Positions 10,904-63,842 of a DNA stretch of 64,000 nt are shown in pieces (position 1 is the first letter of the stretch; each line of letters begins with the position of its first letter). The stretch is taken from positions 2,304,001-2,368,000 of the forward strand of contig OY762654.1 in NCBI GenBank assembly GCA_963666205.1, read 5' to 3'. The notes below the pieces were generated by a model. It was not told the origin of the DNA and searched no databases. It worked only from the letters and a program-made list of their open reading frames with translations. Source of the DNA: Synergistales bacterium (GTDB taxonomy: Bacteria; Synergistota; Synergistia; Synergistales; JAFGMB01). A program made the translations under genes and the position numbers.

Positions 10904-11311
10904 TTAAAATAGTCGTTTTATGATGTAACCCCAGAATAATGGTGCCAGGAGCATTGTTCCAAGAACAATCAACCCTAATCTACCCTCCTTTATTCTGTAA
11001 TCATAAAGGATAAGAGATATGGGTGTTCTGAGAAGAAAATACATTATTAAGGTCTCTGTTATAACACTGAGGATTACCCATATTATACCTGTCAGCAGGA
11101 GAAAAGGGATAGATGCTTCAATGCTGGAAGTGCCTACAAGAAGCCAGAAAAGAAATAGGATTACCAGTATGATCATTGATGTTTCTGTCTGGTGGGACCT
11201 TCTTTCTCCTGCGAAAGGAACGAGAAATACGTTTTTGAATCCTCTGATGATAATTTTTAAAAAAACAAGAACTACCCAGAACCTCAAAGCCCACATGATA
11301 AGATCATCCAT
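10904..11311 (-). CDS. Hypothetical membrane protein
   Basis: Four TM segments with GE..SHQ and DY...EGRL motifs; start 11311 preferred to 11359. Confidence 0.7.
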   Translation of the reverse strand: MDDLIMWALRFWVVLVFLKIIIRGFKNVFLVPFAGERRSHQTETSMIILVILFLFWLLVGTSSIEASIPFLLLTGIIWVILSVITETLIMYFLLRTPISLILYDYRIKEGRLGLIVLGTMLLAPLFWGYIIKRLF

Positions 11312-11596
11312 TGACAACGTCCTTCCGGTGTTTTGTTCATGTAATTCCTTTCGAATCATTTCAAGAGATATTATAGATCAGATTTTATACCCAGCCGGGG
11401 ATACATTGTCAAAAGAAAATGATGTTGACATTCCCCTTCTTAACACTTCTGTTTAAGCCCTTTGGTACTGTTTTACAGATTGTTTTACTTTACCAGTTCT
11501 CCAATACATCATTTGACCATGATAGAGAAAAGATGTATCATCTATTCACGTATATGAATCAGCGTTTATGAGTGGGGTACAGGAGGAGTGAATGTT

Positions 11597-12028
11597 ATGA
11601 CAAAAATGCAGGTTAATTATGTTTATTTTGCTCTTGTTCTTTTACTTTCCATGCTTCTTCTTATAACCGGTCGCATAATGGTTGCACAAAGCTATTCTTC
11701 TGAGACTGAAAATGTCGGGAGGGTAGAAGTAGCACAGGCAAGGCAGAGAATTCTTACAGGAGAGAGTCTTTTTGTTTGTGCATACGATGGTATTGAAAAA
11801 TACAGATCCGTTGCTCTTGAAGGATCCATATCCCTCAATAGTTTCAAGGAGGTATTGAATGAAATACCTCTGGATAAAGAGATAATATTTTACTGAGCAT
11901 GACCGGAGGAAGCTTCAGCAGTCCGTGTGGCTGCGTCCTTTCTTGAGCAGGGCTACAATGTCAAAGCTCTTCTCGGAGGAGTAGATGCGTGGAAAGATGC
12001 AGGTTATATTGATCTTGTATGTGAATGA
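11597..12028 (+). CDS. Exported rhodanese-like selenoprotein with two in-frame UGA codons (FY-U-A-U-PEE)
   Basis: Past TGA 11894 and TGA 11900 the frame continues PEEASAVRVAASFLEQGYNVKALLGGVDAWKDAGY, which completes the rhodanese fold; downstream hairpin; N-terminal hydrophobic signal. Confidence 0.85.
11918..11934 (+). promoter_or_regulatory. Candidate bacterial SECIS element of the rhodanese selenoprotein
   Basis: gcag(t)cc-gtgt-ggctgc hairpin; loop G lies 22 nt after the second UGA and 28 nt after the first. Confidence 0.6.
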
Positions 12029-12053
12029 GTTATCACTTTATGTGTCTTTAAAA

Positions 12054-12160
12054 TAGGGGAAACGAATATAATCCGCGTAAATCTCGTTCGGTTGAAGAAC
12101 CCATAAAAACAGAAACAGGCGATATGTTACTGTAGAAGTGGAAAAAGATTTGCAATGATG
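12054..12160 (+). pseudogene. Possible second rhodanese remnant (Cys type)
   Basis: IGETNII...RLKNP*KQKQAICYCRSGKR resembles GAINI...K..IVVYC.SG.R; internal stop, no start. Confidence 0.4.
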
Positions 12161-12396
12161 GGGCTGAAAAGCCCCTTTCCAGTTTTATTCTCTTGGTTAT
12201 TTTACTTAAGGATCGTATATGGATCTTTTCCCATATCTGAATGCTATCAGGCCCCCCACGGGTATTCTGGTAGAAGGGAAAATGAGGGGTATTTCGTTAA
12301 TGGCATTTCCCTTTGGCGAGAGTGTTCTTTATTGAACTGGGAAATTCGGTATTCTATTCTGAAAATTGCCATTATCATTTTTTAGAAAAATAATGG

Positions 12397-12425
12397 TTGA
12401 CTCATTCTATAAACATGTGTAAGAT
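12397..12425 (+). promoter_or_regulatory. Sigma70-type promoter of the ilv operon
   Basis: TTGACT-17 bp-TAAGAT. Confidence 0.75.
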
Positions 12426-12470
12426 GACCACTAATTTACTTTCAGCAGCCACAGCAAAGGAGGGATAGCA

Positions 12471-12572
12471 GTGAAAGGAACGTCATTTATCAAGATCCAG
12501 CACATCAACGTAATAATTATAGCCATCATTATTAGCTGCGGGTCCCTTCCTGGAGCGTTTGTTGGCTGTTAA
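12471..12572 (+). CDS. ilv attenuator leader peptide 1 (MKGTSFIKIQHINVIIIAIIISCGSLPGAFVGC)
   Basis: aaggaggg RBS then GTG; 9 Ile codons; followed by a terminator. Confidence 0.85.
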   Translation: MKGTSFIKIQHINVIIIAIIISCGSLPGAFVGC

Positions 12573-12593
12573 CATCTGACCAGCATGCATTTC

Positions 12594-12632
12594 AGGGCCG
12601 GGATTCCCCGAAGGGGTTCCGGCCCTTTTTTT
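12594..12632 (+). terminator. Attenuator terminator 1
   Basis: agggccggga-ttccccgaagggg-ttccggccct plus T run; ggtccct in the leader could pair with the agggcc arm as an antiterminator. Confidence 0.9.
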
Positions 12633-12711
12633 GTGGAAATCAAAGAAGTGATTCAGTAGCGATATAGAGATGGATTGTTAGCGATACCTTGTCAACAAAG
12701 GAGGGATAGCA

Positions 12712-12813
12712 GTGAAAGGAACGTCATTTGTAAAGATCCAGTACATCAACATAATAATTATAGCCATCATTATTAACTGCGGGTCCCTTCCTGGAGCATT
12801 TGTTGGCTGTTAA
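12712..12813 (+). CDS. ilv attenuator leader peptide 2 (MKGTSFVKIQYINIIIIAIIINCGSLPGAFVGC)
   Basis: Same RBS and GTG start; 9 Ile codons, 3 of them ATA. Confidence 0.85.
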   Translation: MKGTSFVKIQYINIIIIAIIINCGSLPGAFVGC

Positions 12814-12834
12814 CATATCACCAGCAGGCATTTC

Positions 12835-12871
12835 AGGGCCGGGACTCCCGAAGGGGTCCCGGCCCTTTTTT
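12835..12871 (+). terminator. Attenuator terminator 2
   Basis: agggccgggactccc-gaa-ggggtcccggccct plus T run, directly upstream of the first ilv gene. Confidence 0.9.
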
Positions 12872-12903
12872 GTGGAGAAACTGAGGATAAGGGAGGGAAA
12901 GTT

Positions 12904-13155
12904 ATGGAGGGTTATCTCAAGGTAGTAGCAGAAGACAATCCGGCAACTCTTGTTAAGATATCAAGTCTTCTGTGCAGGAAAGGTTATGAAGTTAAAAGCC
13001 TGACTTTTGGGCCTGATTCATCTGAAGGATTGTCTCTTTTCAACATTGTCCTGAGGGATAACGGAAAAGAAGCCATCAGGATCCTTAAGCAGATAAACAA
13101 GCTGATCGAAGTTGTTGAAGTGAGATCAGTAGAGCCTGAAGGAGTGACTGTATAA
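12904..13155 (+). CDS. ilvN: Short ACT-domain acetolactate synthase regulatory subunit
   Basis: 83 aa; N...L.KISSL..RKGY.V.SL, KQINKLIEVVEV; first gene of the ilv operon. Confidence 0.8.
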   Translation: MEGYLKVVAEDNPATLVKISSLLCRKGYEVKSLTFGPDSSEGLSLFNIVLRDNGKEAIRILKQINKLIEVVEVRSVEPEGVTV

Positions 13156-25336: not shown

Positions 25337-27325
25337 CTACACCTCCTCCAGGACAGCCATCTGAGCCTTTTCGGGTGGGACCTGGTTCGTGAAGATATTT
25401 TCACAGGGCCTTACCTCTGAACTGGCAATGGAAATTCCCATTTTATCAGTAATGGTGTTGAATATTTCTGATAGTCCCTTAAGATCCTTCTGCGGGCGGA
25501 CTATCACATTGAGTCTTCTCCGTTCGCCTTCTATGGTACAGAAGTGTCCACTTCTCTCATACCATGCCGGTGCCGGGAGAAGGATATCTGCCATGTTCAC
25601 CAGGGGATGAACCATGAACGGGGTCTGTACAACGCAGAATCGGGCCATGCTCATTGCCTCAAGAGATTGCGGGGCTTCAGGAACAAGTCCTGTGGAAGAG
25701 ACATAGAGACAGTCAATATCTGCTGTCTCAAGCCAGGCTTCTTCTCCCAGAACTGTGTTAATGGCGGCCAGACTATTGCCGCTTCTCACCATGGGTACGA
25801 TCCCAAGACCATCTGCAAAGAAAGCCCTGGATGCAATTGCGAGGTTTGTAGCCGCTGTAATATTTGCGGCTTCATCTGCCAGTTTGCCGCCAAGGATCAG
25901 TACGGGTTTCTCTGCTTTTTCGAGCATCCTGGCAAGGGTATTCAGTTCAGGATTACCAGTGATCTCAGATCCATCGCTTACCGCCTGGACAAGCTGTAAA
26001 AGAATTTTCCTGACCTCTTTTCTGTCAGATCTGATATCCACATCTGTGATTCCCTTGAAGGGTGTAGTGCAATCGCAGATGTTTGCCAGTTTTGCTTCTT
26101 TCTGGATAGTTGCTACGCGGATGTAGCTTGCAACTACCGGAGCTTCATCCTGGGGGTCCGCTTCTATGGTCAGGATCATGTCGCTCTCCAGGATGTTATG
26201 AGCAGCGGTAAAGGGATGGACACCCTGTTCCACAAAAGGTTGAAATCCTTTCTTGAAACCTCTCAGAACATCTCCTGAAAAACAGTCGATGTATTTGAGG
26301 TTTAGAGAATTCTTGAAGACATCGCTATAAAGGGTAAGTTCTTCATCAGTATGAAGACCGGAGAGTATTGCCCCAGCCTTCGATTTACTCCAAGCATCTT
26401 TCATCTTCAAGGCAGCCTTGGTAAGGGCTTCATCCCAGGATGCTTCCCTGAATGTGGAACCTTCCCGGATCATTGGAACAGAAAGACGCTCTCTTTCTGT
26501 TGATTCCGGAAGCCCCCATCTGCCCTTATGACAGAGCTGTCCTCCGTCAGGACCTTCTGCATTTGAACCTTCAACTCTTGCAATGCTTCCAGTGCGGACG
26601 TAGCCCTTTATCTCACAACCGACTGAACACATGGGGCAGATACTTTCCACAACTTCGTCGCAATCATGCCTTCTTCCCCTGTAGACAAACTCCCGTATGG
26701 TGATGGTACCGGTAGGACAGACCTGTGCACAGGCTCCGCAGTTTATGCAGGTTTCGCTGTCTCCCATCATCTCTCCCAGATCTGAGATCACACTTGCGCT
26801 CCAGCCTCTTTTCTTGAGATCAAGGGTATGTGCTCCCACTTTTTCTGCACACATTCGGATGCATCTGCCACAGAGTATGCAACGGTTATGATCCATTTGA
26901 AGATCAGCTGAAGTAGCGTCGTTTTCAAAATCGTGATAGAGATAGGGATACCTAACACTGTCCATTCCATGTTCAATGGCAAGAGTCTGGAGTTCACAGT
27001 CTCCGCTCTGGGAACAGAACATACAGAAGTGGTTTCTTCCAGCGAAGAGGAGTTCCAGTATCTGTTTTCTGTAGTTGAACAATTTATCTGTCTTTGTACT
27101 TACTACCATACCGTCCTGAGCAGGGGTTGTACATGAGGTAAGAAGTTTGTTGCTTCCCTCTACCTCGACTACGCACATACGGCATGCTCCCGAAGGAGAA
27201 AGACCTTTCAGGTAGCAGAGGGTAGGTATATAGGTATCATTTCTGCGGGCAACCTCAAGGATAGTGTCCCCCTGGAGGCCCTTACAAGTTTTTCCGTCTA
27301 TGATCAAAGTGATCTCGCTCATCAT
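25337..27325 (-). CDS. HydA/BfuA-like Fe-S subunit: NuoG-type clusters plus a non-catalytic molybdopterin-oxidoreductase fold
   Basis: 2Fe-2S (CY...CRMC...C), HxCxxC-x5-C, two 4Fe-4S motifs, CPMCSVGC...LCHKG; no H-cluster motifs, no Mo-ligand motif, no domain IV. Confidence 0.88.
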   Translation of the reverse strand: MMSEITLIIDGKTCKGLQGDTILEVARRNDTYIPTLCYLKGLSPSGACRMCVVEVEGSNKLLTSCTTPAQDGMVVSTKTDKLFNYRKQILELLFAGRNHFCMFCSQSGDCELQTLAIEHGMDSVRYPYLYHDFENDATSADLQMDHNRCILCGRCIRMCAEKVGAHTLDLKKRGWSASVISDLGEMMGDSETCINCGACAQVCPTGTITIREFVYRGRRHDCDEVVESICPMCSVGCEIKGYVRTGSIARVEGSNAEGPDGGQLCHKGRWGLPESTERERLSVPMIREGSTFREASWDEALTKAALKMKDAWSKSKAGAILSGLHTDEELTLYSDVFKNSLNLKYIDCFSGDVLRGFKKGFQPFVEQGVHPFTAAHNILESDMILTIEADPQDEAPVVASYIRVATIQKEAKLANICDCTTPFKGITDVDIRSDRKEVRKILLQLVQAVSDGSEITGNPELNTLARMLEKAEKPVLILGGKLADEAANITAATNLAIASRAFFADGLGIVPMVRSGNSLAAINTVLGEEAWLETADIDCLYVSSTGLVPEAPQSLEAMSMARFCVVQTPFMVHPLVNMADILLPAPAWYERSGHFCTIEGERRRLNVIVRPQKDLKGLSEIFNTITDKMGISIASSEVRPCENIFTNQVPPEKAQMAVLEEV

Positions 27326-27341
27326 TTTACCTCCCTGGACC

Positions 27342-29135
27342 CTATTCTTTCGATATGGCATCGAAGGGACACTTCTCATAACATGTGCCGCACTTGATGC
27401 ACGCATCCTGATCGATGAAATATGGAGTCTGTCTGTCCCCTGTTATACATTTGACAGGACAGTTCCTTGCGCAGAGGCCGCATTTCTTGCACGCTTCAGG
27501 GTCTATTACAAAACGTACGAGTTTTGTGCAGGCACCGGCAGGACAGCGTTTTTCATTAATATGGGCTTCGTACTCGTCCCTGAAGTACCGGAGAGTTGTA
27601 AGAACAGGGTTCGGAGCAGTCTGACCAAGTCCACAGAGGGACATGTCCTTGACCATCTGCGCCAGGTTTTCAAGGGTAACAAGGTCCTCAAGGGTTCCTT
27701 CTCCCCTGGTTATTTTATCCAGGAGAAGCAGCATCTGTTTTGTACCTTCCCTGCAGGGTGTACACTTTCCGCAGGACTCGGCCTGGGTGAATTCCAGGAA
27801 GAACTTTGCTACATCGACCATGCAGTTGTCCTCGTCCATTACGACCAGGCCACCTGAACCCATTATTGCCCCTACCTCTGCAAGGGACTCATAGCTTATG
27901 GGTATATCTAGATGTTCCTCGGTAAGGCATCCTCCGGAAGGTCCGCCGATCTGGACAGCCTTGAATTTCTTGTCGTTCAGGATCCCTCCGCCTATCTCCA
28001 TCACTACCTCGCGAAGGGTTATCCCCATGGGTACTTCAACAAGTCCTGTATGTTTTACCTTCCCCGTCAGTGCAAAGACCTTGGTCCCCTTGGATTTTTC
28101 CGTGCCCATGGAGGCATACCACTCCCCTCCATTACGAAGAACGGGGGGAACGTCGGCCCAGGTCTCCACGTTGTTGATGTTTGTGGGTTTGCCCCATAGT
28201 CCGCTAACTGCGGGGAAGGGGGGTCTAGGTCTTGGCATACCTCTCTGTCCCTCGATGGACCCCATGAGGGCGGTCTCTTCACCGCATACGAAGGCACCTG
28301 CTCCCTCCTTGACATGGAGATCGAAGGAGAAGTCCGTTCCAAGGATGTTCTGTCCCAGAAGGCCGTATTCCTCGGCCTGTGCGATGGCAGTATTGAGATG
28401 TTTTATGGCAAGGGGATACTCGGCTCGACAGTATATGTAGCCTTCGTTGGCGCCCATGGCGTAGGCTCCGATAAGCATGCCTTCGATGACCGCATGGGGA
28501 TCTCCTTCCAGGATCGACCTGTCCATGAATGCCCCCGGGTCGCCTTCGTCAGCATTGCAGATGACATACTTCTTGTCGCCCTGAGATTTAGCGCAGAAGC
28601 TCCACTTGAGACCGGTGGGGAAGCCGCCGCCTCCACGGCCCCTGAGCCCCGAGGTCTTTACTTCTTCGATGACATCACCGGGTGTCATTTCTTTAAGAAC
28701 CTTTGCCAGGGCCACGTAGCCGTCACGGCTGATATATTCATCTATGCTGTCCGGATTAATGTAACCACAGTTGGCAAGGGCCACACGGTGCTGCTTCCCG
28801 TAGAAGGGGATATCCTTGTAATGGGGAACCTTGGGTTTTTCCTCGGTCCCTGTGTAGAGAAGGCGTTCCACTATCCTTCCCTTGTAAAGATGTTCCTCTG
28901 TTATTTCGGACACATCTTCAGGTGATACCCTGCAGTAAAAGGTACCTTCAGGATACACAACAACGATGGGACCCATCTCGCACATTCCATGACAACCGGT
29001 GGGTACAACAAGGATCTCATCGGAGAGACCCTTCTTTTCGATCTCCGATTTGAATTTTTCTATGACTTCATGGGAACCGCTGGAAGCACAGCCGGTTCCG
29101 GTACATACAAGAACATGAGATCTGTAGATCGGCAT
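27342..29135 (-). CDS. hndC: NuoF/HydB/HndC-like FMN and NADH-binding subunit, hydrogenase copy
   Basis: GLRGRGGGGFPTG, DEGDPGAFMDR, GAFVCGEET, GGPSGG, ESCGKC..CREG, C-terminal 2x[4Fe-4S]. Confidence 0.93.
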   Translation of the reverse strand: MPIYRSHVLVCTGTGCASSGSHEVIEKFKSEIEKKGLSDEILVVPTGCHGMCEMGPIVVVYPEGTFYCRVSPEDVSEITEEHLYKGRIVERLLYTGTEEKPKVPHYKDIPFYGKQHRVALANCGYINPDSIDEYISRDGYVALAKVLKEMTPGDVIEEVKTSGLRGRGGGGFPTGLKWSFCAKSQGDKKYVICNADEGDPGAFMDRSILEGDPHAVIEGMLIGAYAMGANEGYIYCRAEYPLAIKHLNTAIAQAEEYGLLGQNILGTDFSFDLHVKEGAGAFVCGEETALMGSIEGQRGMPRPRPPFPAVSGLWGKPTNINNVETWADVPPVLRNGGEWYASMGTEKSKGTKVFALTGKVKHTGLVEVPMGITLREVVMEIGGGILNDKKFKAVQIGGPSGGCLTEEHLDIPISYESLAEVGAIMGSGGLVVMDEDNCMVDVAKFFLEFTQAESCGKCTPCREGTKQMLLLLDKITRGEGTLEDLVTLENLAQMVKDMSLCGLGQTAPNPVLTTLRYFRDEYEAHINEKRCPAGACTKLVRFVIDPEACKKCGLCARNCPVKCITGDRQTPYFIDQDACIKCGTCYEKCPFDAISKE

Positions 29136-29149
29136 AATTCCAGACCCCC

Positions 29150-29527
29150 CTAGTCAGCTTTCCCAATGGCAAGATCTTCCACGATCCTGCCGTTGACGAC
29201 ATGTTCAGCTATGATCCTGCTGACATCCTCTTTCCTGACATTCCCGTAGGTTATTCTTTCCTTACCGGGGATTATGACATCAAGAAGGGGTTCCTGCTGG
29301 CACATTCCGATGCAGCCTGTGGTCTGGACAGACACGTCATGGATGCTTCTTCTTTCAAGTTCCCTGAGAACTTCGTCCATTATCTCCCTGGCTCCTGCTG
29401 CTATGCCGCATGTACCCATTCCAATAACAACGGTCTTGTTGCCGGTACTTCTTGTCGAGGTCAGATCACCGCAGGATTCCTTGATCTTACGGAGATCGTC
29501 AAGACTCTTGATCTTAGCCATTGCCAT
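29150..29527 (-). CDS. hndB: Thioredoxin-like ferredoxin subunit (HndB/HydD-like)
   Basis: GMGTCGIAAGA and TGCIGMC..EP motifs. Confidence 0.88.
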   Translation of the reverse strand: MAMAKIKSLDDLRKIKESCGDLTSTRSTGNKTVVIGMGTCGIAAGAREIMDEVLRELERRSIHDVSVQTTGCIGMCQQEPLLDVIIPGKERITYGNVRKEDVSRIIAEHVVNGRIVEDLAIGKAD

Positions 29528-29532
29528 CCTCC

Positions 29533-30003
29533 TTACTCGAACTTGTCAAGTATTCCCTGAACTTTGTCAGGGGTAAGCCTTCCGAAGGTCTGGTCATCTA
29601 CCACCATTACAGGAGCGAGGCCGCAGGCTCCCAGACAGGCCACTGGCTCGATGGTGAAACGAAGATCATCGGTAGTTTCGTTTTCCTGGATACCTGTTAT
29701 GCCTTTGACCCTTTCCAGGATTTTAAGGCTCCCCCTTACGTGGCAGGCAGTTCCTCTGCAGACCCTGATCACGTGTCTTCCACGTGGAGACAGGTGGAAC
29801 TGTGCGTAAAAGGTGGCAACGCCGTAGATCTCGGCAGTCGGGATCTTGAGTTCCCTGGAAACGGTACGCATTGCCTCTTCCGGCAGATAACCGAAATAAC
29901 CCTGGATCTCCTGAAGAATGGGGATAAGCCCGCCCTTCTTCTCCTTCCAGGGCGATACGATCTCTTCCGTCTTCTGCACAAATTCTTCTTTCGTGTACGC
30001 CAT
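29533..30003 (-). CDS. hndA: NuoE/HydC/HndA-like [2Fe-2S] subunit
   Basis: GVATFY, VCRGTAC, CLGAC. Confidence 0.93.
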   Translation of the reverse strand: MAYTKEEFVQKTEEIVSPWKEKKGGLIPILQEIQGYFGYLPEEAMRTVSRELKIPTAEIYGVATFYAQFHLSPRGRHVIRVCRGTACHVRGSLKILERVKGITGIQENETTDDLRFTIEPVACLGACGLAPVMVVDDQTFGRLTPDKVQGILDKFE

Positions 30004-30200
30004 GTTTTCCTCCTTAATCGCATTGGTATATAGAATAATGTGATGATTTTCACTTTCTTGAAAATAAGACGACCATTTACATTTAACAGAGAACTGGAAA
30101 AATCTACCGATAAATGCTATCTCGTTTACTCACTAAAACGATAACAACGTTTTTTGAAGGATATTATAGTAAAACGATGAAGGTCACTGAAAAAGATTCT

Positions 30201-32907: not shown

Positions 32908-35727
32908 TTATGCTTTTTCAGCATTAACACTGCAGACCTTGGAGTCGTGAGTATCGGAATCCAGGATGATGGTATGTGGGGCAGGTATTTTACCTGAATT
33001 CTCTTCGGTAACTTTTTCTATATTAACAGCACTTATCTTGTAGGCAGGAGTGTCTGAATCCGGATCGGTGACCGCTGCTGTCAGCACATTTGCAGAAGCT
33101 TCACTGAAATGGAAGGGAAGGAATATCATCCCTGGTGCTACACGGTCTGTGATCTTTGCTTTACCTTCCACAGTTCCACGACGGGAGGTTACACGAACGG
33201 TTCTGCCTTCTTCTATGTTTATCTCCAGTGCATCCTCAGGGTTGATCTCCACATAGAGTTCCTTGATGAACTCAGCGGGTGAACTGCGCCTGGACATGCT
33301 TCCGGAATGGTAATGGTAAAGAAGTCTTCCTGTAGTTGCGAGGAATGGATAATCATCATCCGGCCACTCGTGGGGAGCCTGCCATTCACAGGGAGAGAAG
33401 TAGCCTTTACCATTGGGTCTGGCAAATTTAGTCGTGTGAAGAATGGGCGTTCCCGGGTGATCCGGTGTAGGACATGGCCAGGCCAGGGAACCTTCTTCAA
33501 GGCGAGAATAGCTTATCCCCGCGTAACTGGGAGTGCATTCCGCAATGGCTTCAAAAACCTCAGATGAACTGTTGAAGTTCCATGCCGCTCCGAATCTCTG
33601 GGCGAGATCGGTAAGGATTTCCCAGTCTGGACGAGCTTCTCCAGGTGATTCAACAGCTTTGCGAACCCGCTGGACAGCACGTGTGGTATTAGTAAAAGTT
33701 CCGTCCTTTTCTCCCCAGCAGGCAGCAGGAAGGATTACGTCAGCCATCTGTGCTGTTTCGGTAAGGAATATATCCTGTACTACGAGAAGATCCAGATTGC
33801 CCAGGCAATGTCTGACATGATTTGTATCAGGATCGGTGACCATTGGATTTTCGCCCATTATGTAGAGTGCTTTTAATTCTCCCTTACCTGCACCTTCCAT
33901 CATTTTCATGACGGTAAGCCCTGGGTTGGATGGGATATCTGCTCCGTTCCAGAGAGAGTTCATCTTTTCCCGAATATCGGAATCCGTAACTTTCTGGTAA
34001 CCCGTAACAACATTCGGAAGGCAGCCCATATCACAGGCTCCCTGGACGTTATTCTGTCCCCGAAGCGGGTTGACTCCTGTACCAGGACGGCCAAGCATGC
34101 CGCAGAGCAGAGCCAGATTCGCAAGGGTACGGACGTTATTGGTGCCGGTAATATGCTGTGTAATGCCCATTGTGTAGAATATGGCGGAGTTTGGTCCCTG
34201 TGCATAGATCCTTGCGGCCTTTTCTATCATAGCAGAAGGGATGCCGGTAATTTCGCTGGTTCTTTCTGGAGTATATGTGCTCACCATTGATTCGAGTGCT
34301 TCGAAATTCTCTACTCTTTCTTCTACAAATGCTTTATTGTGAAGATTGTCCCTGAGGATGACATGCATGATCCCGTTAATAAGAGCCACATCAGTGCCGC
34401 TTTTCTGGCGGATGTGTATATCTGCACGTTCTGCGAGTTCGATCTTACGTGGGTCACAGACGATCAGCTTTGCTCCGTTTCGTGTTCGCTCCTTGATCCA
34501 TGATCCTATAACGGGGTGCGTTTCTGTAGTGTTCGAGCCAATGACAAAGATAACATCGGCTTCTTTGATAGATTTGAAATCATTTGTCATTGCACCGCTT
34601 CCGAGGGTCTCAACGAGACCCTTGACTGTGGCACTGTGTCACAAATGGGCACAATGGTCAACGTTGTTTGTTCCGATCACCTCTCTGGCCATTCTCTGTA
34701 CCAGGTAGTTTTCTTCGTTTGTGCAGCGGGCAGAGGAGAAGAAACCTATTGAATCAGGGCCAAAATCTTTCCTGATATTATCCATTCGACTTACGATAAA
34801 GTTCAGGGCTTCGTCCCAGGTAGATTCGTGAAAGGCTCCATCTTTCCTGATCAGAGGCTGGGTAAGTCTATCCTCGCTGTGAACGAACTGCCATGCGAAT
34901 CTGCCTTTTACACAGCAACGGCCTTCGTTCAGGGATGTTTTACTCGAATAGTCGGTTTTGACATTGGCTATTCGGCCGGTTTTGTCGTTGACCTGGATAT
35001 TAAGTTCGCAGCCTACACCACAGTAGGAGCAGATGGTTTTGACAGAAGACATTTCCCAGGGGCGGCCTTGTCCCATAGCTGTTTTTTCAGACAGGGCACC
35101 CACAGGGCACATCTGAACACACTGTCCACAGAAAGTGCAGTCTGAGTGTTCCAGGTCGACCCCTACCGGTGTCTGAACCATTGTTTTTATACCCCGGTTC
35201 TGGAAGTCTATGGCATGATACTGGGCCAGACTGTCACAGGTCCGTATGCAGCGGCCGCAAAGGATACACTTGTTAAGATCCCTTACGTAGAAGGGATTGG
35301 CATTTTCCAGGGGATAGTTCCTGCAAGTGTCGCCTTCATCGGCAAAACGGGATTCCTTGATCCCAAGTTCGTAGGCTACATCCTGTAGTTCACACTTCCC
35401 GTTGCTCGGGCAGGAGAAACAGTCCAGGGGATGTCTGATCAAAATAAGTTCAACTACAGCCCTTCGAGCCTCTATTACTCGGTGGGAATGGGTATAAATA
35501 ACCATTCCTGAAGCAGCCGGGGTTGTGCATGAGGGGAGGAGTTTGTTGCTTCCTTCCAGCTCAACGAGACATACTCTGCAGGCTCCGGCTGATTTAAGGG
35601 CCGGGTGGTCGCAGAGTGTGGGGATATGAATGCCGTTAGCCCGGGCAGCCTGCAGGATTGTCATGCCGGGCTCGGCAAAGATCTTCTTGCCATTTATTAT
35701 CATTTCGATACCTTGCATGGTTTCCAT
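32908..35727 (-). CDS. fdhF: Selenocysteine-containing formate dehydrogenase alpha subunit (one gene; the ORF track splits it at the Sec UGA)
   Basis: NNVDHCAHL-TGA(34639-34641)-HSATVKGL...GSGAMTN in frame; LRGQNNVQG; N-terminal Fe-S domains; start may be 35718. Confidence 0.95.
34604..34622 (-). promoter_or_regulatory. SECIS element of fdhF
   Basis: agggtctc-gtt-gagaccct perfect hairpin starting 16 nt after the UGA. Confidence 0.85.
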
Positions 35728-35737
35728 TACCTCCTAT

Positions 35738-37531
35738 TTAGTTTCGGGAAATGGCCGTCACAGGACAGGCCTCTGCGCAGGCGCCGCATTTGATACACTT
35801 TTCCGTATCGATCCTATGTGGTTTCTTTACTTCTCCCGAAATGGCCTGAACTGGACAGACCCGGGCGCATTTAGTGCAACCAATGCATTTTTCCGGGTCT
35901 ATTACATAGCTTGTAAGGGCTACACATGCACCGGCAGGACATCTTTTTTCATAAATGTGGGCTTCGTACTCGTCCCTGAAGTACCTGATAGTAGTGAGTA
36001 TAGGGTTGGGAGCGGTCTGACCAAGTCCGCAAAGAGATGTTTCTTTAATCATTTTTGCCAGATATTCAAGTTTCTCGATGTCACCCGGGACACCTTTCCC
36101 CTCTGTCATGCGGGTAAGGATATCGAGCATTTTTTTTGTTCCTTCCCTGCATGGAACGCATTTACCGCAGGACTCGGCCTGGGTGAACTCCAGGAAAAAC
36201 TTTGATACATCGACCATGCAGTTGTCCTCGTCCATTACGACCAGGCCACCTGAACCCATTATTGCCCCTACCTCTGCAAGGGACTCATAGCTTATGGGTA
36301 TATCTAGATGTTCCTCGGTAAGGCATCCTCCGGAAGGTCCGCCGATCTGGACAGCCTTGAATTTCTTGTCGTTCAGGATCCCCCCGCCTATCTCCATCAC
36401 TACCTCGCGAAGGGTTATCCCCATGGGTACTTCAACAAGTCCTGTATGTTTTACCTTCCCCGTCAGTGCAAAGACCTTGGTCCCCTTGGATTTTTCCGTG
36501 CCCATGGAGGCATACCACTCCCCTCCATTACGAAGAACGGGGGGAACGTCGGCCCAGGTCTCCACGTTGTTGATGTTTGTGGGTTTGCCCCATAGTCCGC
36601 TAACTGCGGGGAAGGGGGGTTTAGGTCTTGGCATACCTCTCTGTCCCTCGATGGACCCCATGAGGGCGGTCTCTTCACCGCATACGAAGGCACCTGCTCC
36701 CTCCTTGACATGGAGATCGAAGGAGAAGTCCGTTCCAAGGATGTTCTGTCCCAGAAGGCCGTATTCCTCGGCCTGTGCGATGGCAGTATTGAGATGTTTT
36801 ATGGCAAGGGGATACTCGGCTCGACAGTATATGTAGCCTTCGTTGGCGCCCATGGCGTAGGCTCCGATAAGCATGCCTTCGATGACCGCATGGGGATCTC
36901 CTTCCAGGATCGACCTGTCCATGAATGCCCCCGGGTCGCCTTCGTCAGCATTACAGATGACATACTTCTTGTCGCCCTGAGATTTAGCGCAGAAGCTCCA
37001 CTTGAGACCGGTGGGGAAGCCGCCGCCTCCACGGCCCCTGAGCCCCGAGGTCTTTACTTCTTCGATGACATCACCGGGTGTCATTTCTTTAAGAACCTTT
37101 GCCAGGGCCACGTAGCCGTCACGGCTGATATATTCATCTATGCTGTCCGGATTAATGTAACCACAGTTGGCAAGGGCCACACGGTGCTGCTTCCCGTAGA
37201 AGGGGATATCCTTGTAATGGGGAACCTTGGGTTTTTCCTCGGTCCCTGTGTAGAGAAGGCGTTCCACTATCCTTCCCTTGTAAAGATGTTCCTCTGTTAT
37301 TTCGGACACATCTTCAGGTGATACCCTGCAGTAAAAGGTACCTTCAGGATACACAACAACGATGGGACCCATCTCGCACATTCCATGACAACCGGTGGGT
37401 ACAACAAGGATCTCATCGGAGAGACCCTTCTTTTCGATCTCCGATTTGAATTTTTCTATGACTTCATGGGAACCGCTGGAAGCACAGCCGGTTCCGGTAC
37501 ATACAAGAACATGAGATCTGTAGATCGGCAT
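35738..37531 (-). CDS. hndC: NuoF/HydB/HndC-like subunit, formate dehydrogenase copy
   Basis: Same motifs as 27342-29135; near-identical except for the C-terminal ~150 aa. Confidence 0.93.
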   Translation of the reverse strand: MPIYRSHVLVCTGTGCASSGSHEVIEKFKSEIEKKGLSDEILVVPTGCHGMCEMGPIVVVYPEGTFYCRVSPEDVSEITEEHLYKGRIVERLLYTGTEEKPKVPHYKDIPFYGKQHRVALANCGYINPDSIDEYISRDGYVALAKVLKEMTPGDVIEEVKTSGLRGRGGGGFPTGLKWSFCAKSQGDKKYVICNADEGDPGAFMDRSILEGDPHAVIEGMLIGAYAMGANEGYIYCRAEYPLAIKHLNTAIAQAEEYGLLGQNILGTDFSFDLHVKEGAGAFVCGEETALMGSIEGQRGMPRPKPPFPAVSGLWGKPTNINNVETWADVPPVLRNGGEWYASMGTEKSKGTKVFALTGKVKHTGLVEVPMGITLREVVMEIGGGILNDKKFKAVQIGGPSGGCLTEEHLDIPISYESLAEVGAIMGSGGLVVMDEDNCMVDVSKFFLEFTQAESCGKCVPCREGTKKMLDILTRMTEGKGVPGDIEKLEYLAKMIKETSLCGLGQTAPNPILTTIRYFRDEYEAHIYEKRCPAGACVALTSYVIDPEKCIGCTKCARVCPVQAISGEVKKPHRIDTEKCIKCGACAEACPVTAISRN

Positions 37532-37545
37532 AATTCCAGACCCCC

Positions 37546-37923
37546 CTAGTCAGCTTTCCCAATGGCAAGATCTTCCACGATCCTGCCGTTGACGACATGT
37601 TCAGCTATGATCCTGCTGACATCCTCTTTCCTGACATTCCCGTAGGTTATTCTTTCCTTACCGGGGATTATGACATCAAGAAGGGGTTCCTGCTGGCACA
37701 TTCCGATGCAGCCTGTGGTCTGGACAGACACGTCATGGATGCTTCTTCTTTCAAGTTCCCTGAGAACTTCGTCCATTATCTCCCTGGCTCCTGCTGCTAT
37801 GCCGCATGTACCCATTCCAATAACAACGGTCTTGTTGCCGGTACTTCTTGTCGAGGTCAGATCACCGCAGGATTCCTTGATCTTACGGAGATCGTCAAGA
37901 CTCTTGATCTTAGCCATTGCCAT
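37546..37923 (-). CDS. hndB: Thioredoxin-like ferredoxin subunit, second copy
   Basis: Protein identical to 29150-29527. Confidence 0.88.
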   Translation of the reverse strand: MAMAKIKSLDDLRKIKESCGDLTSTRSTGNKTVVIGMGTCGIAAGAREIMDEVLRELERRSIHDVSVQTTGCIGMCQQEPLLDVIIPGKERITYGNVRKEDVSRIIAEHVVNGRIVEDLAIGKAD

Positions 37924-37928
37924 CCTCC

Positions 37929-38399
37929 TTACTCGAACTTGTCAAGTATTCCCTGAACTTTGTCAGGGGTAAGCCTTCCGAAGGTCTGGTCATCTACCAC
38001 CATTACAGGAGCGAGGCCGCAGGCTCCCAGACAGGCCACTGGCTCGATGGTGAAACGAAGATCATCGGTAGTTTCGTTTTCCTGGATACCTGTTATGCCT
38101 TTGACCCTTTCCAGGATTTTAAGGCTCCCCCTTACGTGGCAGGCAGTTCCTCTGCAGACCCTGATCACGTGTCTTCCACGTGGAGACAGGTGGAACTGTG
38201 CGTAAAAGGTGGCAACGCCGTAGATCTCGGCAGTCGGGATCTTGAGTTCCCTGGAAACGGTACGCATTGCCTCTTCCGGCAGATAACCGAAATAACCCTG
38301 GATCTCCTGAAGAATGGGGATAAGCCCGCCCTTCTTCTCCTTCCAGGGCGATACGATCTCTTCCGTCTTCTGCACAAATTCTTCTTTCGTGTACGCCAT
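37929..38399 (-). CDS. hndA: NuoE-like [2Fe-2S] subunit, second copy
   Basis: Protein identical to 29533-30003. Confidence 0.93.
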   Translation of the reverse strand: MAYTKEEFVQKTEEIVSPWKEKKGGLIPILQEIQGYFGYLPEEAMRTVSRELKIPTAEIYGVATFYAQFHLSPRGRHVIRVCRGTACHVRGSLKILERVKGITGIQENETTDDLRFTIEPVACLGACGLAPVMVVDDQTFGRLTPDKVQGILDKFE

Positions 38400-38608
38400 G
38401 TTTTCCTCCCCCTTGAAACAATTTAGGTGTAATAAAGATATTTCTATAACTTGAAGCCTGGAGATCCTGTTTTATCCCAGTTTTCCAGGCAATTAAATAT
38501 CGGGATCTATGGGTACTCTCAAGTCTGTTCTTCGTGGAGGGTCAAGCCTTGGTTCCCAATGTTCCGGAAAGCATACTTTTCTGAATAAACAGACATAAAA
38601 ATTATTAA

Positions 38609-61105: not shown

Positions 61106-61581
61106 ATGACTTTTCTTTTAAAGAAAGATTCTGCACAGTATAGAAATGATCCTGACTTCTTCAATCCAATGCTTTTAATGTTCTCTTTAACTCTTTCCTG
61201 ATCCTGAAACTGGTTTAATGAGACTCAGGACCTAAGCTGATGGGTATTTTTAGTTCTATAGACCCAGGGTGGATATGCCAATAGCCCTATACGTCACCTA
61301 GTCGACATAATATAATGACATTAATTCTATAATGAAATAATGTACAACTTTACACTGATAAATATTTGTATGTTTTGCTTATTCGTGGTGTAACTCTATT
61401 TTGCCTTTTAAATCCATTATCAGTTATTCCATATCCGATAAAAGAATTTTATGATAAAGGCTTTTTCCGCTTAAGACCCTGTATCGGAAGGAGGAGTGCA
61501 GTTGGTGAGAACTGATTCATTTTCCAGATAGCGAAGGAAATATTTCTCGTTTACTATTCAGAAAGAGTTGTTTTTGAGATC

Positions 61582-61665
61582 AAACGAAAAGGCAAAGCTG
61601 CCGAAAGGCGGTGACGCAAAGCCGCGGGTCTAAAGTTGAAAAACCATGACAGCCGGGCTGCCGAA
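61582..61665 (+). ncRNA. Cyclic di-GMP-I (GEMM) riboswitch
   Basis: GGCAAA-gctgcc-GAAA-ggcggt-GACGCAAA-gcc..gggtCTAA...TGac.gc.gggctgCC; GNRA tetraloop and receptor; lies 5' of the next CDS. Confidence 0.93.
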
Positions 61666-61694: not shown

Positions 61695-63842
61695 ATGCGA
61701 ATTAAATCAGGTGTTGTAGCTATTGTAGCCCTTTGTTTGGTGTTTCTCTTCGCTTCCGCTTCAGTCGCGGAGATCCCTCCGGGATGGGAAAAGGTAGGAG
61801 ACGGAGGGCTTGTTGACGGCACTCCTGCCCCAGGTGGGCCTTACGACTCAAAACCTGCAAGGAACAATTCCTATGCGTGGTCCATGGGGACTCTCCAGTG
61901 TGAGGAAGATCTTTATCTTTACATTGGGGCTTATCGTAATTTCCCTCACGGTGCATTTCTTGGACCCATTTCTCCCTTCCCCATAGATTCTTCCCTCTTC
62001 GGGGAGAGCATTCCGCCTGAAGAGACCTGGGATCTTGGAACAGTGGAGATCATGCGCAAGAATATCACCGATGACGGGCCGTGGGAGATAGTGCCCCTGA
62101 CCCCTTATGTGGGTGCCGGAGACCTTTCCGGGAACCAGGGGTTCCGGAAAATGTACAGTTACAAGGATGTGCTTTATGCCGGGACCATGAACATGAAGTT
62201 GACATTCCAGGGTTGGGATGGGGTACCCAAGATCCTGGCAATAAGCAATTGTGAAGATGAACCTGTTGATGTAAGCCCGCCTGTTGTTTCTGCTGATCTT
62301 GAGGAGAACAAGGCTTACTCATACAGGGGAATGGTGGAGCATAATGAGATTTTCTATGTTGCCTATGAATATGGTGTTTTTTCCAGTATAGATCCTTCTT
62401 CGGGCTGGAGCCGACTTTCTGATAACGGAAGGATGGGTTATATCACAGACCTGGTCTCTTTCCAGGGTAGCCTGTGGGCAGTGACCAGTGATGGAGAGGA
62501 TGGATGGAGGCTTTTCAGATGGCATCCCACCCTGACCCCTTTCGGGAACCCTGTTCTCAACGGGTCATGGGAAGACATGACACCTTCATTAAAACAGGCT
62601 GTTCATGTTGGAGCAAATGGTTTTGTGTACGATGATCATCTTTATATAGCCACCCTGAACGGTGGATTCCCCCTCTATGATGTGGATCTTCTAAACGCGG
62701 ATGTGCAGACTCTCCTTGATAGAATGATAAAGGTTTTCTACCCATCCTACCTGTATCGTTTTGATGGAGAGAACTGGGAAACCGTAATGGGAAACGGGAT
62801 AGGTATAAAAGGGCCCGGTTTTGGCGTTCCTACCAACGTATATCTCTGGACGAACGGGATCCATGATGGGGATCTCTACATCTCCACCTTTGACTTGAGA
62901 TCTATGTTTTATGCCATTGACTGGGACAACATTGAACTCATCGAAACCGGAGACAACGTGATGGTGGATGCCCTGAAATCCCTGGTATCGGTCCACATAA
63001 TGGGACTTTGCCAGATGGCAGGTATTACACTTCCTCAAGCACCAACACTCTCTGAAATAGTGCATGCCTTCCTGAACCATGGATCACCTGTGGGTTTCGA
63101 CCTCTTCCGCTCCGAGGACGGGGTCAACTTTGAACCGGTTATGCAGGATGGTTTCGGGGATCCTATGCAGTATGGAGGACGCACCATGCTGACCACCCGG
63201 GAGAACTGCAAGGATATCCTCTGGCTCGGAACAGCCAATCCCGGAAATGGTTGCCAGGTATGGCGTTATGAGAAGGTCCCCCTTGCGACTGAGACTGAAG
63301 GGTTCTTCCCCGATCCTGATGGCATCAGATATTCGGTCAGAGTAACTCCCTGCAGCGAGGAGAACAATGGAGAAGTAAGCGGGGATATCCGGGAAACCCT
63401 TGTGGATGTTGCTTCACTGCTGTCTGGTGTTGCCACTGAGGATGACAGTGTCTTCTTCGAGCTGGAACTTGTCGCCTCTGATGATATCTGCTCCGTTGAG
63501 TTATGTGTATATCTGGATGAGGCTGAAAATGAGTGGCTTCCTGAAACCCAGCCAAACCTGTGGTGGTTCGATGGTGTGGAGTGGAATGAACTGGATGTTA
63601 TATGGACCGACCTTGGAGAGGGTCAGTGGAAGGCATGTGCAGAACTTCCAGGTGAAAGCTGGGGGAGCGTATTTGCAGCAGCTCTTGATCCATCAATCTT
63701 TGAGGCTGATGTTCCCTCTGGCGAAGAGCCGGGTGGAAGTACTGGCGGAGGCTCAGGGTGTAATGTAGGCAGTGTCCTCCCTGGCATGTTACTGGTTGTT
63801 ATGCCTCTTATAGTTCTCTTTTCGAGAAAAAATATCAAGTAA
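61695..63842 (+). CDS. Surface protein with SYNERG-CTERM sorting signal, probably beta-propeller-rich
   Basis: Signal peptide; repeated LY.GT and GFG...N/Q.Y motifs; C-terminal GGGSGCNVG + hydrophobic helix + RK. Confidence 0.88.
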   Translation: MRIKSGVVAIVALCLVFLFASASVAEIPPGWEKVGDGGLVDGTPAPGGPYDSKPARNNSYAWSMGTLQCEEDLYLYIGAYRNFPHGAFLGPISPFPIDSSLFGESIPPEETWDLGTVEIMRKNITDDGPWEIVPLTPYVGAGDLSGNQGFRKMYSYKDVLYAGTMNMKLTFQGWDGVPKILAISNCEDEPVDVSPPVVSADLEENKAYSYRGMVEHNEIFYVAYEYGVFSSIDPSSGWSRLSDNGRMGYITDLVSFQGSLWAVTSDGEDGWRLFRWHPTLTPFGNPVLNGSWEDMTPSLKQAVHVGANGFVYDDHLYIATLNGGFPLYDVDLLNADVQTLLDRMIKVFYPSYLYRFDGENWETVMGNGIGIKGPGFGVPTNVYLWTNGIHDGDLYISTFDLRSMFYAIDWDNIELIETGDNVMVDALKSLVSVHIMGLCQMAGITLPQAPTLSEIVHAFLNHGSPVGFDLFRSEDGVNFEPVMQDGFGDPMQYGGRTMLTTRENCKDILWLGTANPGNGCQVWRYEKVPLATETEGFFPDPDGIRYSVRVTPCSEENNGEVSGDIRETLVDVASLLSGVATEDDSVFFELELVASDDICSVELCVYLDEAENEWLPETQPNLWWFDGVEWNELDVIWTDLGEGQWKACAELPGESWGSVFAAALDPSIFEADVPSGEEPGGSTGGGSGCNVGSVLPGMLLVVMPLIVLFSRKNIK

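Follow-up and report, generated by a model that had tools for sequence, protein, structure and literature searches.

The 64,000-nucleotide (nt) stretch of contig OY762654.1 from a Synergistales bacterium that was analysed in this study (the window) contains, at 11597-12028, a gene that databases record only as a 99-residue protein. The best explanation of the evidence as a whole, and one that can be held with considerable confidence, is that these positions make up one functional gene for a 143-residue selenoprotein with a rhodanese fold and the motif Sec100-Ala-Sec102 (Sec, selenocysteine; written U in the motifs below). Comparison with related genes indicates that both UGAs are very probably read as Sec, and one ordinary selenocysteine insertion sequence (SECIS) apparently suffices for the two. 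The U-x-U motif has been in print since 2007; the gene itself is a mis-annotated addition to a known selenoprotein family. The features discussed, and the contigs from independent sequencing runs with which they were compared, are collected in Table 1.

Table 1. Position and strand, in the window, of the features of the rhodanese gene and its neighbour, and cover of the contigs compared with 11400-12200
Feature	Position	Strand	Remarks
Divergent 151-residue multi-pass membrane protein	10904..11359	-	Neighbour of the rhodanese gene
Shine-Dalgarno-like AGGAGG	11581..11586	+	10 nt upstream of ATG 11597
Whole selenoprotein gene	11597..12028	+	143 codons plus TGA stop; translated with TGA as U; full-length homologues of 45-98% identity, TGAs read through
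N-terminal hydrophobic helix and linker	11597..11707	+	Codons 1-37, core about residues 8-24; membrane anchor or signal peptide
First UGA (proposed Sec100)	11894..11896	+	Canonical rhodanese catalytic Cys position by alignment; unchanged in runs X7, X8 and X9
Second UGA (proposed Sec102)	11900..11902	+	Invariant Sec of the family; equivalent to the U of the C-A-U motif in NF041203
Putative SECIS element	11906..11944	+	Core hairpin 11918-11934 plus predicted lower stem 11906-11912 / 11938-11944
Third TGA, true stop	12026..12028	+	C-N-U homologue L026 stops with TAA at the same aligned position (...SCE)
Run X7, RNA library	11654-12200		One difference, at 12159
Run X8	11727-11945		No differences
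Run X9, DNA, diverged strain	Whole of 11400-12200		11 substitutions and a 10-nt deletion upstream, none at 11894-11902
Run X16, RNA library	11608-11869 and 11999-12028		UGAs outside the cover

Read directly, the DNA at 11891-11905 is TAC TGA GCA TGA CCG. The open reading frame (ORF) listed under translation table 11 (11588..11896) terminates at ...EIIFY, while the frame from ATG 11597, with TGA read through, remains open for 143 codons up to the third TGA. This ATG is the likely start because of the AGGAGG upstream of it; the in-frame GTG at 11588 lies just 1 nt past that sequence. A preliminary description of this DNA had noted that the ORF track halts at EIIFY and that the frame continues for 41 codons completing a rhodanese fold, and the DNA, a Pfam PF00581 match that spans both TGAs (residues 79-134; 27.9 bits, cut-off 22.2), and an AlphaFold2 model all agree with this. 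No hairpin was found 3' of the third TGA. Use of TGA as a sense codon throughout the genome was considered and is ruled out, as long table-11 ORFs fill the window and a close homologue has TAA at the position of the third TGA.

The case for two Sec codons is carried by the relatives of the gene. A protein search returns ten database proteins, one of which is the window's own 99-residue call. When the other nine are aligned, five end at ...IFY, two end at ...IFYC-x, and two (P0007 and P0010) read C-A-W-P and continue; in these last two the TGA is suspected to have been called as tryptophan under code 4. A six-frame search with stops read through finds the gene in 15 of 61 related genomes, including four of four in the Synergistales family f1, and a scan of one genome per species yields 47 loci. 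The final table holds 59 non-duplicate family rows, with the codons at both sites read by script: 45 are C-x-U, 12 are U-x-U, and two are Sec-free C-D-S paralogues. Excluded from it are four partial loci at contig ends (L036, L041, L088, L089), a weak hit without the motif (L037), a Sec-free C-D-T paralogue (L040), an NF041203-type paralogue (L042), and two duplicates (L043 of L024, and L044 of L026); L073, which has masked bases, is omitted from alignment A3 only. The family signature is VCAY...FY-[C/U]-x-U. Among the 57 Sec-bearing rows, the codon at site 1 is TGC in 42, TGT in three, TGA in 12, and never any other, while site 2 is TGA in all 57, with no TGC, TGT, or other codon. Cys is therefore the homologous residue at site 1 in 45 of the 57; the Sec-free paralogues have Ser at site 2. 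The preliminary description had pointed to reported CxU-type rhodanese selenoproteins, and the homologue search that it proposed, with TGAs read through, recovers both forms with only Cys or Sec at site 1.

The arrangement TGA-x-TGA followed by an open frame recurs in 11 other non-duplicate loci, so its presence in the window is more than chance. By record titles, members with U-x-U span four phyla: they occur in Synergistales family f1 (the host genome, G001, G003, and G004), Nitrospirota (three metagenome-assembled genomes, MAGs), deltaproteobacteria or Syntrophaceae (four loci), and Gemmatimonadota (one MAG). In a maximum-likelihood tree built with both sites masked, the state of site 1 changes six times, and at least three changes are forced by well-supported branches alone; six is an estimate, because the tree has just 104 columns and many open forks. 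The five-row Synergistales f1 clade (Shimodaira-Hasegawa-like approximate likelihood ratio test, 100) contains four U-x-U members and one C-x-U member. Four columns 3' of the UGAs are invariant (A112, G119, G128, and W132). Repeated exchange that is confined to Cys codons and TGA, together with invariant downstream residues, is the standard signature of a Sec codon. Judged from these codons and this tree, U-x-U is common within the family and has arisen or reverted repeatedly; the proposal that it is a rare design is not supported, as the motif was reported in 2007 (PMC1976440) and is found here in 12 of 57 members over four phyla.

Several loci of the family are of separate interest. A Syntrophaceae MAG (L069) has a C-A-U copy and a U-G-U copy about 1 kb apart on one contig (2995-3312 and 4037-4363), which offers a natural comparison of both forms within one organism. 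The host genome also has a Sec-free paralogue of the VCAY family (L039, G000:C1:922309-922599, plus strand), with F-Y-C-D-S at the two sites and no hairpin. A similar Sec-free paralogue is present in a genome of the same genus (L038), and a C-D-T version in G003 (L040).

The UGAs are followed by a hairpin with the properties of a bacterial SECIS. Its core has a stem of 6 base pairs (bp; 11918-11923 / 11929-11934) and a 5-nt loop, CGUGU (11924-11928), and its predicted energy is -8.1 kcal/mol, or -13.6 kcal/mol with the lower stem, which is predicted in the window's gene only. The loop begins 27 nt past the first UGA and 21 nt past the second. As given in PMC13188914, the bSECIS model calls for a loop of 3-9 nt, a stem of at least 4 bp, a G in the first two loop bases, 16-37 nt between UGA and loop, and a minimum free energy of -7.5 kcal/mol or lower; the loop length, stem, spacings, and energy of the core hairpin lie within these bounds for both UGAs. 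The preliminary description had placed one SECIS to serve both UGAs and had suggested RNA folding downstream of them; the spacings and the folding energy of the hairpin support such a placement. It had also described a hairpin whose loop starts with G; the hairpin is there, with the G as the second loop base, which is still compatible with the bSECIS model. In Rfam at gathering thresholds, no SECIS family matches over the window, and a c-di-GMP-I riboswitch, which identifies the DNA as bacterial, is the only match.

Comparison across the family strengthens the assignment. Every one of the 57 Sec-bearing members has the hairpin in the same codon register, and the two Sec-free C-D-S paralogues are without it. 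Covariation was measured on an ungapped 60-nt alignment of the 57 rows, for a helix of eight pairs, with 500 shuffles as the control. Helix cells are paired in 80.3% of cases, against 72.2% in the shuffles, and the covariation score is 0.322, against 0.144 when shuffled and at most 0.155 for slid registers; none of the 500 shuffles reaches either observed value. Columns 27 and 39, both third codon positions, are paired in all 57 rows (UA 30, CG 19, GC 3, UG 3, AU 2). At the outer end of the helix, columns 23 and 43 fail to pair in 50 of 57 rows, and the real stem is therefore 5-7 bp. A G is present within the first two loop bases in every row and is followed by U in 52.

The sequence of the gene is secure in independent data. 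An identical TGAGCATGA is present in a genome of the same genus and in a MAG, and contigs from four runs, belonging to four studies, were compared with 11400-12200 (Table 1). Both TGAs are kept in the three runs, from three studies, that cover them, with no TGC or TGT at either site, which answers the call in the preliminary description for a check of reads at 11894-11902. Within the ORF, the diverged strain of run X9 has five substitutions, of which two are synonymous; the only one 3' of the UGAs, in codon 126, is synonymous. A sequencing or assembly error was considered as the source of the TGAs, and is ruled out by the same-genus genome, the MAG, and runs X7, X8, and X9. The gene is probably expressed, while contigs from RNA libraries are no proof of transcription.

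The host is equipped to decode UGA as Sec. A search of its complete 2.95-Mb genome finds selA (565 bits against a curated cut-off of 268), selB next to selA (364 against 242), tRNA-Sec (77 against 47), and selD (334 against 125), all above their cut-offs. That the host recodes UGA had been proposed from a Sec-containing formate dehydrogenase in the window; this gene is indeed present, on the minus strand at about 33019-35037; it scores 905 bits (cut-off 666) and has one in-frame TGA. Synergistetes has been described as a selenoprotein-rich phylum (PMC5029168). The selD gene (G000:C1:2905894-2906826, minus strand) has one in-frame TGA of its own, from which the selenophosphate synthetase would itself be a selenoprotein in this genome.

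The AlphaFold2 model, made from a 58-row alignment, has a mean predicted local distance difference test score of 92.6 and consists of a helix (residues 3-37) followed by an alpha/beta domain. In this domain a strand (95-99) leads into a loop (100-102) and a helix (103-116), with residue 100 directly after the strand, so that the two UGAs fall in the active-site loop, as had been described. In Foldseek there are 38 PDB matches at E <= 0.001, with rhodanese domains in all among the matches listed; the best is BH2092 (3nhv, E 2.9e-6), and others are the rhodanese domains of persulfide reductases, GlpE, Sud, and the rhodanese domain of YgaP (2mrm). When PDB sequences are searched with a profile, site 1 falls on the catalytic Cys of the canonical rhodanese 6mxv, and by this alignment site 1 is the canonical rhodanese catalytic position. 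The canonical six-residue active-site cradle of the C-x4-R/S type is not present; the family loop exceeds that of 6mxv by two residues and matches that of BH2092 in length. Most members keep the canonical Cys, and two residues later, where the next helix begins, comes the invariant Sec; in the window's gene, both are Sec. Cys61, in the VCAY motif, is invariant across the family and, by the usual sheet topology of rhodaneses, presumably lies on the strand beside the active site.

In the protein as proposed, three loop residues join the active-site strand to the start of the next helix, and two of these would bear selenols. Sec100 and Sec102 would most likely form a very low-potential redox or chalcogen-carrying pair, either as a diselenide or with a bound sulfur or selenium (S/Se) atom; Sec-x-Sec would then fill the role that Cys-x-Sec has in the majority of relatives, with the more reactive form at each position. 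During synthesis, SelB carrying Sec-tRNA(Sec) would bind the single SECIS and decode both UGAs. With one SECIS for both, the hairpin would have to take up a second SelB complex before two codons have passed. The N-terminal helix would keep the protein at the membrane, where it may cooperate with the divergent 151-residue membrane protein.

Several results weigh against parts of this account. Sec at either UGA is supported by sequence comparison and is a prediction at the level of the protein. Cys is found at site 2 in none of the 57 Sec-bearing relatives. The contig of run X7 is assembled from an RNA library and could derive from DNA, and that of run X16 misses the UGAs. Taken whole, the 67-nt region is no more stably folded than its shuffled versions (z = 0.34), and the case for the SECIS therefore rests on comparison and not on energy. 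The hairpins of U-x-U members are no stronger than those of C-x-U members (mean -11.68 against -11.51 kcal/mol, p = 0.99) and no longer (p = 0.40). A special SECIS in the U-x-U members was looked for, and none was found; nothing in the hairpins marks an adaptation to a second UGA. As for location, an Arg (or Ser-Arg) is conserved directly past the hydrophobic core in the f1 proteins, the core is flanked by one positive charge on each side, and no signal-peptidase site is conserved throughout all close homologues.

The last three observations bear on the orientation of the protein, where the leading alternative has the most force. All five f1 loci and the close homologues share the hydrophobic N-terminus. 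It had been called a signal peptide; the hydrophobic helix is there, but the lack of a cleavage site common to all close homologues and the Arg after the core leave that assignment unsupported. A plausible cleavage site, judged by eye, precedes a conserved Y-S in about six of eight close sequences, again with the Arg after the core. In the alternative, the rhodanese domain faces the cytoplasm and only the short N-terminus is exposed outside, so that the protein would be a membrane-tethered S/Se carrier like Escherichia coli YgaP instead of an exported one. The conserved Arg and the missing common cleavage site favor it, as do the single unbroken helix 3-37 of the AlphaFold2 model and the occurrence of the YgaP rhodanese domain among the fold matches. 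However, the net charge is +1 on the N-terminal side of the core and -1 in the 15 residues after it; the linker after the helix resembles the post-cleavage linker of relatives with signal peptides (L053, L063, L062, L087, and others); and the same genome encodes two NF041203 paralogues with classical signal peptides. Classical signal peptides are also found in the deltaproteobacterial subclade of the window's own family. An outward-facing rhodanese domain is somewhat favored on this evidence, and the cytoplasmic arrangement is a credible contender that falls short of being expected; a cleaved signal peptide, a signal anchor, and the opposite topology are all candidates.

For the decoding itself, one could suppose that efficient Sec insertion is confined to the second UGA, and that at the first the ribosome usually stops or a different tRNA is used; the first UGA would then act as a selenium-dependent throttle, and the U-x-U protein would be made rarely or never. 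The register of the SECIS is fixed relative to site 2, U-x-U members have no compensating change, and a single hairpin would have to be assumed to deliver SelB twice in the space of two codons. The exchange at site 1 speaks for Sec there: its codons in the 57 rows are Cys codons or TGA (45 and 12) with no TGG, it has switched at least three and probably six times, and U-x-U is retained across a clade spanning 45-98% identity. In addition, the 27-nt spacing of the first UGA lies within the 16-37 nt bSECIS range, and other families with two close Sec residues have been catalogued (ULPU, PMC5029168; TsoB UxxxxU, PMC13188914). A throttle at the first UGA is accordingly improbable, and decoding of both UGAs as Sec is preferred. 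Least probable is a decaying pseudogene, or the 99-residue table-11 ORF as the true product: although eight of the ten database proteins, the window's own included, stop at the first or second TGA and two read W at site 2, the 41 downstream codons are in frame, conserved in every relative with invariant residues, and needed for a complete rhodanese fold, a covarying SECIS is present, and the 99-residue product would be without the active-site loop and two secondary-structure elements.

The divergent 151-residue membrane protein is adjacent to the rhodanese gene in all five f1 loci (34-95% identity) and is present in 5 of the 61 related genomes, which are exactly those of family f1. It lacks Cys, and a loop in it has the conserved motif K-N-x-F-x-x-P-x-x-G-E-R-R-S-H. 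Neither Pfam nor NCBIfam has a family that matches it, and the Atlas returns "hypothetical protein" at 0.88. A word-based search finds only one close homologue, while a profile search at E <= 0.001 finds 544 proteins, a broad unnamed family of about 130-140 residues; in the 14 of these that were scanned, no Pfam family covers the matched part, and four longer ones have unrelated or sub-threshold domains elsewhere. Adjacency within one family is weak evidence of a functional link because kin share synteny. As read from these genomes, what is specific to the Synergistales clade is the N-terminal membrane helix together with the conserved divergent membrane protein; export is a prediction. A more speculative idea, rather unlikely in its full form, is a two-gene membrane module in which the U-x-U rhodanese is tethered to the outer face, forms a diselenide, and handles S/Se outside the cytoplasm beside the four-helix protein, with a single unmodified SECIS. 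If true, this module, with its UGAs six bases apart and one SECIS, would be a natural test of the reach of SelB and the speed at which it reloads.

Other features of the window lie further from the rhodanese gene. Between it and an ilvN-like ACT gene (12904-13155) are about 870 nt without a convincing ORF (12029-12903), and Rfam at gathering thresholds has no match within them. The ACT gene is followed by ORFs of 338 and 554 residues, taken by eye for ilvC and ilvB. A 2.49-kb direct duplication of 97.1% identity (27529-30013 and 35925-38409) encodes in each copy a 597-residue NuoF-like flavoprotein subunit (Complex1_51K, NADH_4Fe-4S); one copy adjoins a Sec-free molybdopterin oxidoreductase (25337-27406), and the other the Sec-containing FdhA (about 33019-35037). 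The c-di-GMP-I riboswitch (61581-61665, plus strand, 86.5 bits) lies just 5' of a 715-residue ORF (61695-63842) in which no Pfam family is found at E <= 1e-5.

Current knowledge is not overturned by these results, because U-x-U rhodaneses and other bacterial proteins with two Sec residues have already been catalogued. What is added is the frequency of U-x-U, the catalytic identity of site 1, a covarying SECIS in fixed register that fits both UGAs, and a sister group missed by the curated model. For annotation, every database gene call for the window's protein and its close relatives would be wrong, eight of ten being truncated and two reading W; pipelines will continue to truncate the sister group because no curated NCBIfam model reaches its cut-off in any of 16 members tested. 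The repeated clean exchange of Cys and Sec at the canonical rhodanese catalytic position, beside an invariant Sec, makes the family a natural system for the advantage of Sec over Cys. In terms of decoding, it offers a test of one bacterial SECIS serving two nearby UGAs.

The closest known family is NF041203 (rhodanese_LYCAU, rhodanese-related (seleno)protein), which is the best NCBIfam match of the window's protein (51.5 bits, with the cut-off at 115). The 16 VCAY...FY[C/U]xU members tested, ordinary C-A-U ones included, score 40-71 bits. Compared with the C-A-U motif of NF041203, the window's protein has the second-site Sec and has Sec in place of Cys at the first site. Because the scores are below the cut-off while the Sec site and SECIS are common to both, the window's gene is placed in a sister group of NF041203, with VCAY where NF041203 has the strand motif IDxR. 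The host genome also has tandem NF041203 paralogues (L090, about G000:1272043-1272441 and 1272690-1273097, minus strand) of 149 and 162 bits. These resemble the window's gene in their C-A-U-P motif, hairpin register, and hydrophobic N-terminal leader; however, they are above the cut-off, have classical cleavable-looking signal peptides, and read [LI]-Y-C-A-U, with Cys at site 1.

Rhodanese selenoproteins of the C-x-U type have been listed as "COG0607 form 2" (PMC9312934) and as "form 3, NF041203, CxU, 1 Sec" (PMC13188914). They share with the window's protein a single rhodanese domain, a Sec two residues past the catalytic position, and the same SECIS type and codon register. The U-x-U form was described for a rhodanese-related sulfurtransferase from Olavius symbionts by Zhang and Gladyshev in 2007 (PMC1976440), the only relevant match in a literature word search for UxU and selenocysteine; Table 1 of that paper gives 0 Cys homologues for the family. 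As described there, the symbiont protein also has two Sec residues, one residue apart, in a rhodanese active site, a likeness that does not imply membership of the sister group. BH2092 from Bacillus halodurans (3nhv and 3o3w), a structural-genomics rhodanese, has the same loop length and a Pro three residues past the catalytic Cys, but has neither Sec nor a membrane helix. Sud of Wolinella (1qxn), PspE (a weak NCBIfam hit for relative L082), and YgaP are single-domain rhodaneses in sulfur transfer at or beyond the membrane, and by analogy the window's protein may work in a similar way; unlike it, they have the canonical six-residue Cys loop and no Sec. Two UGAs a few codons apart in one bacterial gene have been catalogued for the ULPU-containing selenoprotein (PMC5029168) and for TsoB (UxxxxU) and MbdU (PMC13188914), which are like the window's gene in this respect, although their proteins have unrelated folds or are fusions.

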